Position numbers and translations under genes: made by a program
Assembly (NCBI GenBank): GCA_038143065.1
Contig: JAYQLI010000004.1
Span: 1-49,441, forward strand
DNA from: Rhodospirillales bacterium
GTDB taxonomy: Bacteria > Pseudomonadota > Alphaproteobacteria > Bin95
Direction: 5' to 3'
DNA length: 49,441 nucleotides
In this document: piece by piece, positions 1,051 to 24,932 of the stretch
How positions within the stretch are numbered: the first letter of the stretch is position 1
Layout: the number at the start of each line of letters is the position of its first letter
The notes under the pieces: model-generated
Seen by the model: only the letters and a program-made list of their open reading frames with translations
Database searches by the model: none
What the model was told of the DNA's origin: nothing

Positions 1051-1677
1051 TAGACCCCTCATCTAGATCCGAGATTGGATCAAGAACCAGAACCAATCGG
1101 GTTTGGCCTGTGCCTTGAATGGGGGAGATCGGTGCACCAGATCCACCTTTGCTTTAGAAGGCCAGCGTTTGCCGCGAAGAACGATCGCTGCTCCCGTTGG
1201 AACCGTGTGAATCGTTTCGGGATCCCCAGCAGCATTTGCCAGCCCATATTGGGTGCCGGTGCCGCGATAGGTACATATAAGCCGCGCGGTTATTGCATCT
1301 ATGTGAAAACGGCTACAGGCATTATGCGAGATAACATCAAGGCGTAAGCGCATATATTGAGCTTTCATAATTTGCGTAAACGCATCAGAAAGCTGCTGTG
1401 CATGCGCGATAAATGCGTCGCGTTCGGCACAAACCGGCATCTGAGACATATCACAAATATGAACCAAGGCGCTCTGAACCTGATTAGGACGCAAAATAAC
1501 CCGTGCCTTTGGCAAACAGGCCGGGTCTAATGAAGCGAGCCAGGCTAAAATGTGAGAAGATATCTGGGTTTGGCACAATACGGCTGCGCAATCCGGATCT
1601 TGAATAATCGAAAAATCGCTAGCGGTTTGTGCAAGCGCAACCCCCACCAGCGCCTTTTTGTTCTTGTCAGAGAGCAT
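1040..1677 (-). CDS. DUF1826 family protein (frameshift near C-terminus)
   Basis: CSRFHIDAITARLICTYRGTGTQY and VHRSPP motifs. Adding one base in the G run at ~1121-1125 restores HRSPPIQGTGQTRLVLVLDP with a stop at 1040. Typical COG0523 neighbour. Confidence 0.85.
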
Positions 1678-1679
1678 GT

Positions 1680-2894
1680 TTATGCGGCCTCTTCAGAGCG
1701 GCGCCAGATGGGAAAGGGATCGGGCATATCAAGCGGTAGCGCGCTTGGGGAGGAGGCCATAGAAATCGGAACAAGACAGGCGTCCAATTTGGCTTTTAGC
1801 GCGTTCCAATCAATCCCTGACCCGATAAATACCAGTTCTTGGCGCCGGTCCCCCCATGGCTCTTGCCAATGCGCCTGAACATAAGCGTCAACCCCGTTAT
1901 GATCGGGCCAATTTTCCCGCGCAACCGATGCCCACCACGTGCCCATCGGCTTGACGCTTGACAGCGCACCGGCCAGCGAAAACTCAGCCACCCAATCTGG
2001 CCGCGTACTGATCCACAAATGTCCTTTCGCACGGATCACACCGGGCAGATCCCCATTCAATGCCGCAAGGATTTTTTCCGGGATAAATGGCTGGCGCTCC
2101 CGATAAACATAGCTGCTCACCCCATATTCTTCGGTTTCGGGCACATGATCAGAAAACCCATAAAGTTCTTTGGCCCACATCGGATGCTCATGGGCTTTAT
2201 CAAAATCAAATAGGCCAGTATTAAGTATTTTTTCGGCAGCAACTTCAGACCGGTTGGTTTCAATAATCTCGGCATCCGCATTCAGGCTGCGAATGATCTT
2301 GCGCGCTGCATCCACCTGCGCTGGTCTGGCATCAGAAACCTTATTCAAGATTACAACATCTGCAAATTCTATCTGATCGGTCAACAAATGCACCAAGCTG
2401 CGCTCATCCTCTTCACCCATCACCTCGCCGCGATCACGCAGGAAATCATGGCTGGAAAAGTCATTTAGCAAATTGACCGCATCCACCACCGTCACCATAG
2501 TATCTAGCCGCGCCACATCGGACAGGCTTTCCCCAAATTCATCACGAAAATCAAACGTCGCCGCAACCGGAAGCGGTTCAGAAATACCCGTGGATTCGAT
2601 CAATAAATAATCAAATCGGCCCGCTGCAGATAAGCGGCGCACTTCATCAAGTAAATCATCGCGCAGCGTACAACAGATACAGCCATTTGACATCTCAACC
2701 AATGTTTCATCAGTGCGGCTCAACTCGGTATCCGCGCGAATGAGATCGGCATCAATATTCACCTCTGACATATCGTTGACAATCACCGCAACGCGGCAAC
2801 CTTCACGATTGTTCAACGTACGGTTTAAAAGAGTAGTTTTACCAGCGCCTAAGAAGCCAGATAAAACCGTAACCGGAAGTCGTTTATCAGTCAT
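1680..2894 (-). CDS. zigA: COG0523 zinc metallochaperone GTPase (ZigA/YciC type)
   Basis: Intact 404 aa. GFLGAGKTT Walker A, GCICC metal motif, ESTGISEP, CobW_C-like end [11 protein letters not shown]. Confidence 0.9.
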
Positions 2895-2910
2895 AAAAAC
2901 ACCTTATTAT

Positions 2911-3978
2911 TTAGGATATTAAGGCAGGCTCAGTTGCCCGCACGCGCAGCATATCAAGGCTCCGTTGCAGCTCGGGTCGGGATAAATCACGCGCAATAAT
3001 AACAATGCGCGTTCTACGATCCTCTTTCGCCCAGTCTTTAAGCTGCACAGGCGGTGCAAAAATATGCTGTACCCCATGGATAACGAAAGGGGCCTCGATG
3101 CCTTCGAGGAACAAAATACCTTTCACTCGCAATATATCAGAGCCTCTGATCGCAATAAGCGTGTCGAGCCAAAGATCAAAAGCGGCATCCGGTAGTGGAT
3201 CATCCAAAATGATCGAAGCTGATCCAATCCGCGTATCATGCGCTGGCAAAGGCGCTGCTATTTGAGCGGCGGGGGCAAAACCTGACAGATTTGCAAGCGC
3301 CTCAAATTTTGGCTTTTCGCCAACTGTCCAATTCAAAGCTTGCTGCTTTGTGGCGTTGTTGTGAAGCGCGCTTAACCCCCAAAGTTTTCCAAACAAGCCC
3401 TTTCCCAAGATGGATCGGATGATGGTTATGCCAGGATTCAAACCATATAGGCGGCTTTCAAACTCTGCACATCAGCAGGGCTTACGAGATCGGTTTTGCT
3501 TAGAACAATCAGATCCGCCATAGCCGCTTGTGAGACGGCCTCAAATTGTGCATCAAGCGTGGCGGCCGCATGCGCAGCATCCACAACCGTTACAACCCCG
3601 TCCATCCGGGTGTTTTTTGCAAGAAAATCATCCACCAGTAACGTCTGCAAGATCGGGCCGGGATCCGCCAATCCGGTGGTTTCAATAACGATACGTTCAA
3701 ATGCAACTTCGTTTTGCACGCGGCGCTCAAACAAATCCTGCGATGGTCTTTGAAAGATCACCACGCACCGAGCAGCATAGACACCCCGACCGCATTAAAA
3801 TAATTTCTTCACTGCTTTCTTCGATCAGATCGTGATCCAACCCTGCTTCGCCAAATTCATTGACGATAACAGCCACGCGTCCAGCAGAACTATCGGATAA
3901 AACGGCATTGAGCAAAGTGGTTTTGCCAACGCCTAGAAATCCTGTGAGCAATGTAACTGGAACGCGTGGATCTGCCAT
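2911..3978 (-). CDS. Second COG0523/CobW-family GTPase (two frameshifts)
   Basis: Pieces 3727-3978, 3438-3764 and 2911-3441 give GFLGVGKTT, GCLCC, ETTGLADP, ILRVKG and HGVQH in order. Confidence 0.85.
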
Positions 3979-3981
3979 CGG

Positions 3982-5118
3982 TTAATTCCCCAAAGCGTCG
4001 ATGAGCGTCGTTGCATTATGGCGCATCATATCAAGATAGGTGGATGCAGGCCCGCTTTGCGCAGAAAGCGCATCTGAGTACAACGTTCCCCCAATCGTCG
4101 CACCCGTCTCATTTGCGATCTGCTCCATCATACGATTATCTGTGATCGATTCGATAAACACTGCCGAAATACTGTCTTCGCGAATTTGCGTGATCAAGGC
4201 GGCCACATCGCCAGCTGAAGCTTCGCTTTCAGTGCTCATTCCTTGGGGCGCAACAAAGGTCAGATCATACGTTGCCGCAAAATATCCAAAGGCATCATGC
4301 GGCGTTACCACCGTTCTTTTATCTGCGGGCAAACGTTTCATCATCGCCTCAATGTCAGCACTAAGCGTCTCTATCTCGGATATGAAAGTGGCGCGATTAG
4401 CATAATAATCTCCGGCGTTTTCAGGGTCGGCCTGAGCAAGCCCAGCGGCAATGTTATTGGCATAGATCACAGCATTTTCGAGGCTATGCCACGCATGCGG
4501 GTCAAATGCGCCATGATCATGCCCCGCGTGGTCGTCATGATTGTCATGATCATCGTGCTTATCATGCTCGTCATGATCGTCGTGGCCATCATGATCATCG
4601 TGCTTATCATGGTCGTCATGATCGTCATGGTCAGCGTGATCGTCATGATCATCATGGTCAGCGTGATCGTCATGATCGTGATCGTCGTGATCGTCGTGAT
4701 CTTATCATGATCGTCATGGTCATCGTGATCGTGATCGTCATCGTGATCGTCGTGATCGTCAAAGGCTATTGGGACAACGCCCTTTGTCGCCACGACCATC
4801 GCGCCGTCGAAGGAGGCGGATTCGGCAAGACGTTCTAACCAACCTTCAAACTCAAGGCCGTTCAAAAACAACACATCAGCCTCTGCAACCGAGCGCGCCG
4901 CCTTTGGTGTTGGTTGATAGACATGCGTATCGCCATCTGGTCCAACCAGCGTTGTAAGTGCGATATGTTCGCCGCCGATGCGCTCAACCATATCCCCAAG
5001 GATTGAAAAGGTTGCGACAACGGGAATGGGCTCTTCAGCCCATGAGGCCATTGGAAACGATAACGAAAAAAGCGGCAAGAGCCGTGGCAGATTTCAGCGT
5101 AAAACGTAAAGATGTCAT
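3982..5118 (-). CDS. Zn/Mn ABC transporter substrate-binding protein (ZnuA/AztC-like) with long His/Asp loop (frameshifted)
   Basis: VVATFSILGD, DTHVY, DPHAW (after frame correction), HDAFGY and YSDALS motifs. ATG at 5118 follows a GAAAGGA RBS. Frameshifts near 5066-5071 and ~4700. Confidence 0.9.
4515..4760 (-). repeat. Low-complexity 9-bp-period repeat encoding (D-D-H)n
   Basis: Degenerate GAYGAYCAY tandem inside the metal-binding protein gene. Confidence 0.9.
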
Positions 5119-9561: not shown

Positions 9562-10856
9562 CTACCACACCTTCTGCATGTGCTCTCTCATGACGTCTAG
9601 GGCATAGCCTGAGCCATAGTTGGCAGCGACTGTGTTGGAACCATGCCCTAGGATGGCCATTGAGATAGCCTCAGGGCAGCCTGTATTCCTCAGCTTGTCC
9701 TTCATGCGGTGGCGGAGGGAATGCATCGTAAGCTTCTTATCGGTGATTATGATTCTCAGGCGCTTCATCAGCATAGCAGAGGCAGCATCATTGCCACGTG
9801 GGCGAGCGTATTTGGGGAATATAGCCTCCCATCCTCCTTGCCTTTCCTGTGCTCCTGCAGTGTCTCTGCTGCCCTGTGGCTCAGTGGTAGTGTTCTATGT
9901 GAGCCCTTGGTCTTAAGACCTCTTATGCTGTTGGGGCGTATGGTTACTGAGCGCTCCTGCAGGTCCACGTCTTGGACTTCTAGCCCTACAATCTCCGACA
10001 GCCTTGCACCTGTATCTATCAAGGTGATGAAGAGTGCCCAGGCAAGCGGGTCATTCTGATAGCAGGGAGTTGCTATGGCGATATGCTCGTCCGTCAGCGG
10101 ATGCCTATCCTCGACGCTGGCCCCTGCTCCCTTTTATCTTCAATCCGTTGAATACGTTTGGGATGGTAAGGCTATGCTCTGTTATCACGTAGTTCACGGC
10201 TGCCTTTACAACGGCCACATTCCTCAGCACCGAGTTGGGCTTCATCCGCTCCAGTAAGTGGTCCCGAAAGGCATTGGCATCCTGCTCTGGTAATCTCTTC
10301 CAGGCTACCCTTTTCCAGCTTGTGCTCTCCCAGGCTGCTTTTAAGGTCTTTGCGCAGCTTCTTTATACGCAGGGCAGCATCTTTATCTCTCACACCTTCC
10401 CCGGCTTTATAGGCTGCATATTCACTTAAGGCTGTATCCAGTGTCATGGGCGGCGACTGTAGCTTGCCGTTGTAGACTTGCCTCACCACCTCCTGTGGCA
10501 GTTTGCCAGCAATCGTTTGGGCCAGCTCATTCAGCGCATAGTCCTCTTGGCTGTATTCAACGATTTGACCAGCCACGACCATATCCGCAACTTCCTCGCC
10601 CAGCGCTGCTCTAATGAAGGCCAGGGCTCGTTCATTGGCGGGCATGGTCTCTTCTGCTGCAAACAGCTGCCTCTATTTCCAAGTGTACTTTGGGAAGGGC
10701 CTTCATCGCCTCTGAGTAGCTCTCCCCAGTTGCCGATAGAGTGTATCCTTTCCAATCAGGTGTCTGAGCTTTTTTAGGAACGTTTCTTTTATAGCGATAC
10801 GAGCCGTTCTGGCGTCTAAAGACATAGGCGGGGAGTTTTGGCATCTTGGGGTCCAT
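9562..10856 (-). mobile_element. Tyrosine recombinase/phage integrase (several frameshifts)
   Basis: Pieces give YRYKRNVP (N-terminal), TGARLSEI, LKT, HSLRH, ILGH and NYG catalytic motifs. Confidence 0.85.
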
Positions 10857-11292: not shown

Positions 11293-11510
11293 GTGATAGG
11301 ATTGGAAGTCGACCCTTTTTCTGCACCTGGGAAATTCTGGCGAGGCAATTTACACACCCATTCTACCCGCTCGGACGGGGTACTTGATCCAGATGAAGTC
11401 GCTCGTTGTTATCAGCTTGAAGAGTATGACTTTTTAGTAATGACAGACCACTTCGTAGGTTTGTTTGACTATCCCTTGACCAACATTCAATACTCCGAAA
11501 ACGAGAACTT
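11293..11510 (+). pseudogene. N-terminal fragment of a PHP-domain (CehA/McbA-like) metallohydrolase
   Basis: FWRGNLHTHSTRSDG and TDHF match 32088-33008. Similarity ends after ~73 aa. Confidence 0.8.
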
Positions 11511-11541
11511 CAGAAGGCTGGCTGGTCAAAAAAGGGTAAAT

Positions 11542-11590
11542 AAAAACCAAAATGACCGCCCAACATGGAGAAACTCCTTGTTGAACGGCC
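11542..11590 (-). terminator. Probable intrinsic terminator downstream of the RNA array
   Basis: Minus strand: GGCCGTTCAACA-AGGAGTTTCTCCA-TGTTGGGCGGTC stem followed by ATTTTGGTTTTT. Confidence 0.55.
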
Positions 11591-11603
11591 ACTTGTTCTA
11601 ATC

Positions 11604-12065
11604 CATCTGTCAGCCACCTTCAGCATGGGCGAACCATTGCGTCCTGCGTCTCAGTTAACGGGCACATTATCCGAAGATAACACTTCCGCCACCTAATCGC
11701 CGATGCCTTCGATGATAATGATCCAAAGATCAAAACCTTTCCAACATCTGTAGTCTAACTCGCCGATTACCTTCAGCATTAGCGAGCCAATGCTTCCTGC
11801 GTTTTAGTCAAAGGGCGTAAAATCCGAAAACATTACTCACTTTTTCTATCACGCCGATGCCTTTCCGTTTTCTTATCCGAAGATCAGAACCTTCCCAGCA
11901 TCTGTAATCTAACTCACCAGTTACCTTCAGCGTTAGCGAACTTACGCCTCCTGCGTTTAATTTGTTTCCGCAATCTCCGAAGAGTTTGTTTTCACAATTT
12001 GACCGCCGATGCTTTTGTGGATAATAATCCGAAGATCATAACCTCTCCAACATCTGTAATCCAAC
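11604..12065 (-). ncRNA. Tandem array of three ~153-nt structured RNA units, family unknown
   Basis: ACCTTCAGC recurs at 11616/11769/11923 and CATCTG at 11745/11899/12051. Minus-strand hairpins are mostly UUCG-capped, with compensatory changes between units. No ORF spans it. Confidence 0.7.
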
Positions 12066-12265
12066 AGTGGTACATCCGTTTTAGCCTTAAATCCGTTGCC
12101 AGTTTTAAGCCTGAAATTTCGATACCCCCCAGACTAGATTAACTTTTAAAATTACACGAGATCTGCCATCCACAAAGCCCAAAATGCGGCATTTTGACAA
12201 GGTGGCTGACTTATCCCCAACTTTCTTATCTTACTCACATTTTTATCCACAAAAACTGTGGAAAA
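12016..12265. promoter_or_regulatory. Cluster of DnaA-box-like 9-mers
   Basis: TGTGGATAA 12016-24, TTATCCCCA 12211-19, TTATCCACA 12243-51, TGTGGAAAA 12257-65. Confidence 0.45.
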
Positions 12266-12319: not shown

Positions 12320-12527
12320 ATGAGCGAAGACCGCCTTCACACGCATGGAGGATAAGATCGACAAATTGTCAGAAGCTGTCCACGCCATCGCTCGAATGGA
12401 AGAGCGAATGCTTACCGTCTTTAAGCGGCTGTAAAACGTGGACGGCAGCATAAAGAAAATGGATGACCGCATCGATGAGATGGAAAAACAGGCCCTTGCC
12501 AGAGGTCAAAAAATTGCATTTGCTGAA
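12320..12527 (+). pseudogene. Phage-like coiled-coil protein remnant, cut by IS3
   Basis: MSEDRL..RMEDKIDKLSEAVHAIARMEERMLTVFKRL*NVDG...GQKIAFAE, with a frameshift and a stop. Ends exactly at the IS end. Confidence 0.5.
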
Positions 12528-12722
12528 TGTCTAGCCCCCTATATTCGCCCATTGATTTTTGGTTTCTCTAATATGGTTTCTGGGGCGGGTGGGCGCATGT
12601 TTAATGCGTGATGAGGTCTGATCTGGTTATATTGCCTAAGCCAAACATTGATAGCGACCTGAGCTTGTCGTGTGGTGTGGAACCATTCAGCGTTGAGGAT
12701 TTCTTTTCGTAGGGTCCCATAG
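12528..12722 (-). mobile_element. IS3-family right-end remnant (orfB C-terminus)
   Basis: Minus-strand GTLRKEILNAEWF...WLRQYNQIRPHHALNMRPP. Terminus TGTCTAGCCCCC at 12528. Confidence 0.8.
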
Positions 12723-23844: not shown

Positions 23845-24932
23845 ATGTACGTAGCTGTCAAAGGTGGGGAGCGCGCCATCGAGAATGCCCATGCCTGGCT
23901 TGCCGAAGAACGCCGGGGGACAAGGGTGTCGCAGAACTCAGCATCGCACAAATCCGCGAGCAGCTGAGCCTTGCAGTAAACCGCGTTATGGCCGAGGGCT
24001 CGCTTTATGATCCTGACCTTGCAGCACTTGCGATCAAGCAGGCGCGTGGTGATCTTATCGAGGCAATCTTTCTGATACGTGCTTACCGCACCACCTTGCC
24101 CCGCTTTGGCGCATCCCAGCCGGTGGACACGGGTGCAATGGCCTGCGATCGACGCATTTCAGCGACCTTCAAAGACTTGCCAGGAGGACAAGTCCTTGGA
24201 CCAACCTTTGACTACACCCACCGTTTGCTGGATTTCAAGCTGGCCGCAGACGGTGAAGTGGCTGAAGCTCCGAGCCGCGACGTGGTCAAAGGCGATGTGC
24301 CTCATGTTGCCGAATTTCTGAACCTTGAAGAGCTGATCGAACAGGCCCCTCAGGGATAACACACCGCCCCCGACTTGACCCGCGAACCCTTGGAAATGCC
24401 CGCCAAGCGCGCCTTACGACTACAGGCCCTGACCCGCGCGGACGAAGGCTTTACACTTGGCCTTGCTTATTCAACACAGCGTGGCTACGGGCGCAACCAC
24501 GCCTTCGTTGGCGAGCTGCGTATTGGGTCCGTTCCGATTGAGATGGACATCCCCGAACTGGGCTTCGCGGTCGAGATCGGCGAAGTCACCCTGACCGAAT
24601 GCGAAACGGTTAACCAGTTCACTGGCTCAAAAACAGAGCCGCCGCAATTTACGCGCGGTTATGGACTGGTCTTTGGTCAGACCGAACGCAAAGCAATTTC
24701 AATGGCACTGGTCGATCGCGCGTTACGCTGGGAAGAACTGGGCGAGGACAACGTCGGGGCTCCAGCACAGGACGCGGAATTCGTGCTGTACCACGCTGAT
24801 AATATCCAAGCGACGGGCTTTCTTGAGCATATCAAGCTACCACATTACGTCGATTTCCAATCTGAGCTAGAGCTGGTGCGCAAGCTGCGCCGAGAAGCCC
24901 TGGGCGATCAGGTTCAGAAGGCAGCGGAATGA
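23845..24932 (+). CDS. phnI: C-P lyase subunit PhnI (two frameshifts)
   Basis: MYVAVKGGERAI, RRISATFKDLPGGQVLGPTFDYTHRLLD and HIKLPHYVDFQSEL. Confidence 0.92.

Follow-up and report, generated by a model that had tools for sequence, protein, structure and literature searches.

A three-domain structured RNA gene of a new, probably phage-derived family in marine bacteria

What is encoded by three diverged, tandemly arranged units of ~153 nt in the genome of a Rhodospirillales bacterium? The units are found in contig JAYQLI010000004.1 of the GenBank assembly GCA_038143065.1, of which positions 1 to 49,441 of the forward strand were analysed (49,441 nt, below called the window). A sequence-only reading of this stretch had proposed one transcript of repeated RNA domains of an unknown family. 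The data give good support for the units being paralogous four-way-junction domains of one non-coding RNA gene, which occupies the minus strand from ~12139 to 11542. It is very probable that this is a real, expressed and structured RNA gene, and that its undescribed family is derived from phages. The stable product is probably ~540 nt long, with its 5' and 3' ends paired to each other.

The three units proposed on the minus strand are real. They extend from 12065 to 11604, and the four sequence blocks previously named are invariant among them. Coordinates of the units, read on the minus strand of the window, are listed with those of the other features in Table 1. The aligned units of the window show a mean column identity of 82%, and the linkers between units are conserved (GAGTTAGA). 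Across 24 distinct genes of the family, the mean identity of units within one gene is 65–69%. Tandem Repeats Finder returns no rows because of this divergence, and its empty output is no argument against the repeat. Seven of nine hairpin loops have UUCG when read on the minus strand, whereas arm 3 of unit 2 has CUCG and arm 1 of unit 3 has UUUG. RNAalifold returns for the three units the closing stem and the three arms that had been folded by eye, with 47 pairs, 11 of which show compensatory change. The junction nucleotides (A, G, AGGA and GAAGG) and the purine-rich internal loop of arm 1 are constant across domains. The arms are mostly capped by UUCG, and their sequences drift while the pairing stays. 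The units are preceded by a leader of ~75 nt and followed by a short tail, in which a domain start recurs. The whole is better seen as one gene with a leader, a fixed set of three domains and a tail than as an open-ended array.

Table 1. Features of the RNA gene and of its surroundings in the window.
Feature	Position	Strand	Remarks
88-aa gene remnant	12320..12527	+	Divergent from the RNA gene; weakly XhlA-like, with coiled coil and C-terminal membrane helix; contains a frameshift and is truncated at 12528 by an insertion sequence (IS) fragment
DnaA-box-like cluster, three 9-mers	12211..12265		12257-12265 (-), 1 mismatch; 12243-12251 (+), perfect TTATCCACA; 12211-12219 (+), TTATCCCCA
Putative promoter	12178..12145	-	GCTTTGT block 12178-12172; -35-like TTTGTG 12176-12171; 16-nt spacer; -10-like TAATTT 12154-12149
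Leader	12139-12066	-	5' strand of the terminal helix P1 (12138-12131), G-run, conserved hairpin, 5' strand of helix P2; helices 1-4 of the consensus fold of 15 full-length genes
Domain 1	12065-11913, 153 nt	-	Four-way junction: closing stem, arm 1 with purine-rich internal loop, long arm 2, short arm 3; covariance model (CM) score 169.9 bits
Domain 2	11912-11760, 153 nt	-	Fold as in domain 1; arms 2 and 3 differ in sequence; CM score 166.8 bits
Domain 3 and start of tail	11759-11604, 156 nt	-	3' strand of P2 at 11613-11607; CM score 166.5 bits
Tail	11604-11594	-	3' strand of P1 (11604-11597), pairs with 12138-12131; 8/8 pairs in 15/15 sequences, invariant
Terminator-like hairpin	11593-11542	-	19 pairs (helix 22, ~11593-11551), then U-run to 11542; one compensatory pair, GC:9 / AU:6
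Putative C-terminal remnant of a small convergent gene	11505..11539	+	Corresponds, as judged from alignments, to the gene downstream of the RNA in IMCC1909 and phage L138
Tyrosine integrase, split over several frames	9562..10856	-	Downstream of the RNA gene; two fragments match Phage_integrase in Pfam (E=2.6e-8 and 8.2e-4)

The pairing was compared with controls in two larger alignments of the family. In the alignment of 72 domains, 97.4% of 1511 cells are paired, against 24.8–46.0% when the partners are slid. Ten of the 31 pairs are changed on both sides, and the 107 cells of this kind compare with 4–27 after sliding. The covariation score is 0.379, against a maximum of 0.067 in the controls. 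None of 500 shuffles matches the observed pairing, the compensatory cells or the covariation score. In the alignment of 15 full-length genes, 99.2% of 2742 cells are paired over 183 pairs, against 33.6–45.9% with slid partners. The base of arm 2 is switched from G-C to A-U, and the stems of arm 3 in domain 1 are changed on both sides. In one of the two known bacterial clades (clade B), the UUCG loop of arm 3 in domain 3 is replaced by GCAA or GCAG, which are GNRA loops, and the stem is changed too. G-U pairs make up 15.9% of the paired cells; therefore, the pairs fit the minus strand only. Pairs are kept through compensatory change beyond the controls, although the count of double-change pairs is marginal.

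These patterns bear on the possibility that the array is a decayed repeat-protein gene, or a set of DNA repeats without an RNA function. Nothing beyond the repetition itself speaks for it. The copies differ by single-base indels, no open reading frame (ORF) is common to the clades, and compensatory changes, tetraloop swaps and a very high depth in RNA libraries are observed. The array contains only short unconserved ORFs, of 43–47 aa on the plus strand, and the clade-B ORFs that span the array include none common to clade A. A decayed repeat-protein gene had been put forward in advance as a finding that would overturn the RNA interpretation. The indels, the lack of a shared ORF and the compensatory changes leave this interpretation standing, and the alternative is extremely unlikely.

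How are the three domains joined? In the consensus fold of the 15 full-length genes, P1 joins the first bases of the RNA to its tail, and P2 then wraps all three domains. The pairing of P1 is also seen in the minimum free energy (MFE) folds of the window RNA and of a phage RNA described below. In this consensus, the linker between domains 1 and 2 is paired with the linker between domains 2 and 3. According to RNAalifold, each unit is also able to close on itself. The sequence data are compatible with either arrangement, three self-closed junctions or the nested fold predicted for the whole gene.

Is the gene transcribed? The stretch is found in 20 of the 24 sequencing runs listed, and six of them are metatranscriptomes. 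Four metatranscriptomes from four studies were analysed, in which 1142–3813 contigs per run lie on the gene. The summed depth is 3.6e5–2.8e6 over 11627–12082 and 0–95 on both flanks. Contigs cover 11570–12139 with summed depths of 1e5–2.8e6. The flanking gene remnant has a depth of 1–8, against ~1e6 for the RNA. In these four environmental RNA data sets, the RNA exceeds its neighbours in depth by four to five orders of magnitude. Carry-over of DNA could not produce 1e5–2.8e6 on the gene beside 0–95 on the flanks. RNA libraries from salt marsh thus contain the RNA at very high depth, and the gene is transcribed, as seen from contigs that are unstranded.

The high-depth cover ends between the bins 12083–12139 and 12140–12196 on one side and inside the bin 11570–11626 on the other. 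The stretch with the terminator, 11513–11569, is without high-depth cover. High-depth contigs start just downstream of the putative promoter. Adapter sequence is found on single contigs at 12122 and 11599. Contig gaps prove nothing by themselves, and these positions are a weak hint that the 5' end is near 12139–12122 and the 3' end near 11599, with the terminator trimmed. In run X16, a contig joins 11732 to 12042, which are equivalent places of domains 3 and 1, skipping 309 nt, or two units. Its depth is 324, against ~1e6 for the gene, and it may be either a natural one-domain variant or an assembly chimera.

The transcript could be cut between the units into pieces of ~150 nt with activities of their own, e.g., as separate small RNAs or as a processed decoy array. 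The linkers are conserved, each unit can close on itself, and the listed RNA contigs are short (70–125 nt) and hence cannot exclude cutting. Against it, the whole-gene consensus nests the units inside P1 and P2 and pairs one linker with the other. A contig of run X18 (record 26) spans the border between units 2 and 3 with more than 31 nt on each side, and no pile-up of molecule ends is reported among the contigs. Besides, the variable arms conserve structure and not sequence among orthologues, and therefore they are not seed regions. Three separate small RNAs are an unlikely product of this gene. The variable guide loop proposed from the sequence is not supported either, given the same behaviour of the arms. 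The other part of that proposal, one transcript of repeated domains under selection for structure, is borne out by the single promoter and terminator, the fixed domain order, the maintained pairing and the depth in RNA libraries.

Each junction might also be a catalytic or ligand-sensing module, that is, a new self-cleaving ribozyme or aptamer. Conservation is focused on the junction and on the internal loop of one adjacent arm, with variation allowed elsewhere in the arms. The hairpin ribozyme and junction-based aptamers concentrate their conservation in a similar way. However, no ribozyme or riboswitch model of Rfam matches, neither an expression platform nor a regulated downstream gene is present, and cleavage ends are not seen in the RNA contigs. 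A ribozyme or aptamer is accordingly rather improbable, somewhat more so than a set of processed small RNAs.

Does the RNA belong to a known family? No model of Rfam 15, those of GOLLD, ROOL, phage pRNA, riboswitches and ribozymes among them, matches at its gathering score in the whole window. The best sub-threshold matches in the array region reach 14–18 bits (E of 2.1–7.1), which is noise, and IMES-3 is among them with 14.9 bits (E=5.1; its gathering score is 55). There is also no match at E<=1 in the relatives from IMCC1909 and phages. The Rfam comparison suggested earlier, IMES-1 to -4 included, thus agrees with an unknown family. A description of the RNA was not found in the open-access texts searched. 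It is well supported that the family is undescribed and new.

Relatives occur first of all in the same genome (4.63 Mb in 52 contigs, 97.6% complete), which contains four copies of the whole array with 95–100% identity, two of them on one contig. Conservation among these copies spans ~12157 to 11542, and the copy on contig C2 has only 11542–12157 in common with the window. The long match between contigs C4 and C50, flanks included, is ~88% identical, and the 462-nt array alone is 97% identical to that copy and 95–97% identical between the four copies. The recurrence of the array at four places of its own genome with 95–100% identity, between flanks of ~88%, and in other organisms is more than chance. 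Between unrelated contexts, homology is limited to the gene and ~80–135 nt upstream, and stops at the terminator.

Another locus of the genome (G000:C1:11879-15385) resembles an "empty" version of the C2 locus, lacking ~2.5 kb in which the RNA gene and a gene for an MFS transporter are located. Nine genomes of the same genus contain no DNA match to the C2-type locus; therefore, an empty site cannot be read in a relative.

Pattern scans of species genomes and metagenome contigs, followed by a covariance model of the kind that had been recommended, recover homologues in IMCC1909 and in 31 metagenome contigs. The first scan, with a block pattern and one genome per species, yielded 18 stretches. 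Only one is real (L013), a single three-unit array in "Rhodobacteraceae bacterium IMCC1909", which is Planktomarina-like. The stretch L006, with 16.4 bits and E=0.037, is taken as noise, and the other 16 have no CM match. With a looser pattern in metagenome contigs, 31 of 32 stretches are real and 84–98% identical over the whole gene; the remaining one, L051, matches by chance. The leader, three domains and the tail are found in all 29 full-length copies (24 distinct), and the order of the domains is fixed. They split into two clades, which are 83–87% identical to each other. The same domain is 84–87% identical across clades, while different domains are 65–69% identical. The triplication is therefore older than the split of the clades.

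BLAST of the array against 60 relatives gives no matches. In CM searches, the known carrier is the only positive among 37 genomes of the family of the window's organism (the same set as its order), among 23 genomes of the genus of IMCC1909, and among samples of 151 genomes each from the family and the order of IMCC1909. These genome sets are samples, some of them searched with stricter filters, and the negatives hold for the genomes searched. The distribution of the gene is sporadic. There is clear evidence that the gene has moved horizontally between two bacterial orders.

Where does the gene come from? The 88-aa gene that lies divergently beside it is a remnant in the window and is intact in L041 and L054. 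Its protein has weak PHROG matches (phrog_1863, E=8.8e-5; phrog_937 "hemolysin", E=1.8e-3), nothing in Pfam, and 116 relatives in viral contigs. Among the 80 of these viral loci kept for the CM search, the domain model matches in three with 34–42 bits, always upstream of the 88-aa gene and divergent from it. A fourth, degenerate phage copy was recognised by eye, which makes four of 80 loci. The phage copies have one domain only, accompanied by upstream boxes, promoter block, leader, tail and terminator as in bacteria. Their junction letters are conserved and their stems covary. The phage RNA is ~230 nt long and its fold has z = -3.61.

In phages, the 88-aa gene is followed by terL (E=7.4e-61) and a head-tail adaptor gene. 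One viral contig of 58.9 kb, rated 100% complete, encodes two tyrosine recombinases and has the order RNA, boxes, 88-aa gene, terS-like gene, terL and adaptor. The phage RNA is located between the early region and the terminase genes, and is divergent from the packaging operon. A phage origin had been considered possible, and the single-domain relatives beside terS and terL in viral contigs point the same way, as does a tRNA-Leu island with an integrase in IMCC1909. The searches for further phage forms are negative or return known contigs. Two patterns of the unit give no stretches in viral contigs. The promoter-leader pattern gives nine, two of them real and both on contigs already found. The leader pattern gives 13, among which only the known L175 is real and the other 12 reach at most 6.6 bits (E=6.6). 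BLAST against phage and plasmid collections gives no match. In the complete phage contig L125, a 74-aa zinc-ribbon-like ORF (2144-2368, minus strand) with its own promoter-like site follows the RNA terminator on the same strand. It has a weak Pfam match to Zn_ribbon_Elf1 (E=0.0083, below the cut-off) and is not seen in the bacterial loci.

The RNA has its own promoter and terminator, is present at the same place in only four of 80 related loci, and, as far as contig depth tells, is expressed while the neighbouring phage genes are not. Phages carry one-domain modules and bacteria retain the gene, so that the module resembles in its behaviour a temperate-phage moron which outlives the decayed phage genes.

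The tandem RNA repeat on mobile DNA, with a small membrane protein encoded divergently, recalls an RNA antitoxin, either of type I against the 88-aa protein or of type III against a toxin encoded downstream. An antitoxin-like array had indeed been among the earlier proposals, and it is not supported by the comparison of loci. A conserved gene beyond the terminator was not found, and the genes downstream differ or converge. The 88-aa gene is without the RNA in 76 of the 80 viral loci, and bacterial loci retain the RNA with the 88-aa gene broken or absent. The energies of RNA-mRNA duplexes, by a method that is crude for long RNAs, are no better than those of shuffled mRNAs (L041, -81.2 against -80.5 +/- 5.0; L125, -72.5 against -64.0 +/- 6.0). 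Type I is not supported, in view of these energies, which are within the shuffled range, and of the many 88-aa loci without RNA. Type III is not supported, as no co-oriented endoribonuclease toxin gene follows the terminator. An antitoxin of either type is very unlikely.

The upstream region of the gene carries three to five DnaA-box-like repeats with a spacing of 12–20 nt. The window of 49,441 nt contains 15 matches to TTATCCACA with at most one mismatch, three of them inside the 55 nt of the cluster, and only two perfect boxes. Several close matches to TTATCCACA thus stand upstream of the promoter, and they are conserved among homologues from every context class, the phage versions included. 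The promoter block is conserved in the copies of the same genome, in IMCC1909, in metagenomes and in the phage versions. A regular-expression search finds the boxes in 4/4 phage loci with the RNA and in 1/76 without it. Among phage loci, the boxes accompany the RNA and not the 88-aa gene. Binding of DnaA to the cluster is suggested by the resemblance of these repeats to its boxes. A perfect DnaA box is also present inside domain 1 (12016-12024, in the 3' strand of arm 1), probably by chance, since other clades do not conserve it.

The box cluster could instead be a cis-acting DNA element, such as an origin or a packaging site of the phage or island, with the RNA as a primer or by-product. The box-like repeats directly upstream and the phage position between the early region and the terminase genes fit this idea. 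However, in the class 1 loci, found in metagenomes and in the genome of the window, the gene is among ordinary chromosomal genes and the phage and replication genes are gone, and there the module is kept and the RNA depth is high. Selection acts on RNA pairing, and the ends pair as in stable RNAs. A cis-acting element is improbable as the explanation.

In the window, the RNA gene also has zinc-uptake genes on its left, while genes for acyltransferase, IS and phosphonate lyase are on its right. The N-terminal fragment of the split integrase clusters with the integrase of IMCC1909 (Phage_integrase and DUF6538); the splitting may indicate either a pseudogene or assembly indels. Splits or truncations affect several genes, namely cobW, znuA, the integrase gene and phnI (in 2911-5078, 9562-10856 and 24375-24932), which are pseudogenes or contain assembly indels. 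A segment of ~20 kb (~7900-29300 of the window) is present three times in the genome, once on contig C4 and twice on C50, with 88–99% identity. It carries the integrase, the RNA gene, acyltransferases, IS and phosphonate C-P lyase genes. The repeat of ~190 nt at 12528-12718, which truncates the 88-aa gene, can be read as the 3' end of an IS3-like transposase gene and an IS end, and has many copies in the genome of the window. At least 12 copies, with 76–91% identity, are in IMCC1909; therefore, mobile elements are common to the two orders.

In IMCC1909, the gene resides in an island of 5.6 kb (L070 8385-14029, corresponding to G061:C1:774384-780028), bounded by a 17-nt exact repeat of the 3' end of tRNA-Leu at a distance of 5628 nt. 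The island contains an intact integrase gene, a 51-aa gene, the RNA gene and ORFs of 96, 129 and 177 aa, which by eye resemble DUF1330, glyoxalase and secreted proteins, respectively. For IMCC1909, the paper on RCA genomes (PMC10675870) reports one incomplete prophage, and for the other RCA genomes none. The RCA cluster, to which this cultured isolate belongs, is described there as one of the major roseobacter lineages in oceans from the temperate to the polar zones.

How does the RNA compare with known systems? GOLLD and ROOL are highly expressed. They are large prophage-associated bacterial non-coding RNAs (PMC12286853). The RNA here resembles them in being a stand-alone gene with its own promoter and terminator, in its link to prophages and mobile DNA, and in a function that is not established. 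Unlike them, it is smaller (~230 nt in phages, ~540 nt in the triplicated form), matches no Rfam model, and repeats one four-way junction with UUCG-capped arms instead of combining many different tertiary motifs. It is found in marine bacteria and has a DnaA-box-like cluster in front. The phi29 pRNA is likewise phage-encoded, with paired 5' and 3' ends and a central multi-helix junction, and the phage copies here are beside packaging genes. However, no Rfam model matches, the phage pRNA family included. The loops of the bacterial form are UUCG or GNRA, hence there are no complementary loops for ring formation. The depth of the RNA is high where terminase genes are absent or near-silent.

Antitoxin arrays of the type III ToxI kind are also tandem structured RNA repeats on mobile or phage-related DNA. 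The repeat period of ToxI-type arrays is ~36 nt, whereas it is 153 nt here, with exactly three diverged domains and no endoribonuclease gene after the terminator. IMES-1 to IMES-4 are reported to be abundant in marine RNA samples and, as here, their function is not known; the IMES-3 match is at noise level and the architecture differs. As a working analogy, the RNA may be likened to CsrB/RsmZ and 6S RNA, which are abundant, stable and trans-acting, CsrB/RsmZ with several copies of one binding module. The modules here are junctions of 150 nt and not GGA hairpins, and the long helix with a bubble of 6S RNA is not seen.

An actual sponge of CsrA, in the manner of CsrB/RsmZ, could be imagined from the unpaired AGGA in every junction and the GGA in every arm-1 loop. 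However, CsrA (PF02599) is found in neither of the two genomes searched for it, that of the window and IMCC1909, while the control search is positive in three of 14 named genomes. The chance of a CsrA sponge is close to nil.

The best overall explanation, which is held to be moderately probable, is a phage-derived, three-domain RNA that acts multivalently in trans. It is well supported that the family originated in temperate phages as a one-domain RNA, back to back with a packaging operon of the 88-aa protein gene, a terS-like gene and terL. Tandem triplication gave rise to the form with three domains before the divergence of the two clades known from bacteria. Islands and prophage remnants now carry the gene, which stays intact while its phage neighbours decay. 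The abundant and stable RNA would act in trans, and its three near-identical surfaces, each made of a junction and an internal loop, might titrate or scaffold a protein. This mechanism of a protein-binding decoy or scaffold, drawn by analogy, is tentative and clearly less certain than the gene itself. The RNA may be a moron expressed in lysogeny that benefits the host, for example through control of related phages or immunity against them. The DnaA-box cluster could couple its transcription to the replication state of the host.

A more specific version is a phage-born protein trap that was captured and triplicated by bacteria. The one-domain RNA would cooperate with the late or packaging machinery of its phage, either as a cofactor similar to pRNA or as a timer linked to the host DnaA; the small terminase, the portal and a late regulator are examples of what it might bind. 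The chromosomal three-domain copies, produced in very large amounts, would be RNA-only decoys that block superinfecting relatives. This version is a doubtful one, well behind the general idea of a decoy or scaffold.

Several observations weigh against the explanation by a structured, phage-derived and trans-acting RNA. P1 and P2 are invariant in the 15 genes, hence they have no covariation support. The count of double-change pairs is reached by 36/500 shuffles for the 72 domains and by 14/500 for the 15 genes, and the further pair types are below the shuffled mean in both alignments. The MFE of the window RNA has z = -2.08, and 3/100 shuffles fold equally well. Independent events are few, since the orthologues form two clades only and the known phage copies are four. 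The structures were derived from the same sequences that were used for testing them. The contigs are unstranded and come from RNA runs only, picked for containing this stretch, and expression is poorly measured by summing the depth of contigs. The terminator-like hairpin noted earlier downstream of the array stands in the consensus fold as helix 22, but a simple scanner based on the sigma-70 consensus called neither this element nor the promoter. Instead of DnaA, a terminase, a late activator or another protein of the phage could be what recognises the upstream repeats. No gene is constant beside the RNA across contexts, and a partner protein was not found. The function is suggested by analogy alone.

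It is rare for a bacterial RNA to combine large size, strong structure and very high abundance with a function that is not known. 6S, OLE, GOLLD, ROOL and IMES each started a line of work. The build of the present RNA is unusual, with a four-way-junction module that occurs once in phages and three times in bacteria, and with a regulatory region that looks DnaA-controlled. Since the carrier IMCC1909 is cultured, the RNA is directly testable. Should it titrate a protein of the host or of a phage, it would be relevant to the influence that temperate phages and their remnants have on the physiology of abundant bacteria in the ocean. If it is a decoy against phages, it would represent a new kind of RNA-based phage immunity, provided by an unusually abundant bacterial transcript of coastal waters.

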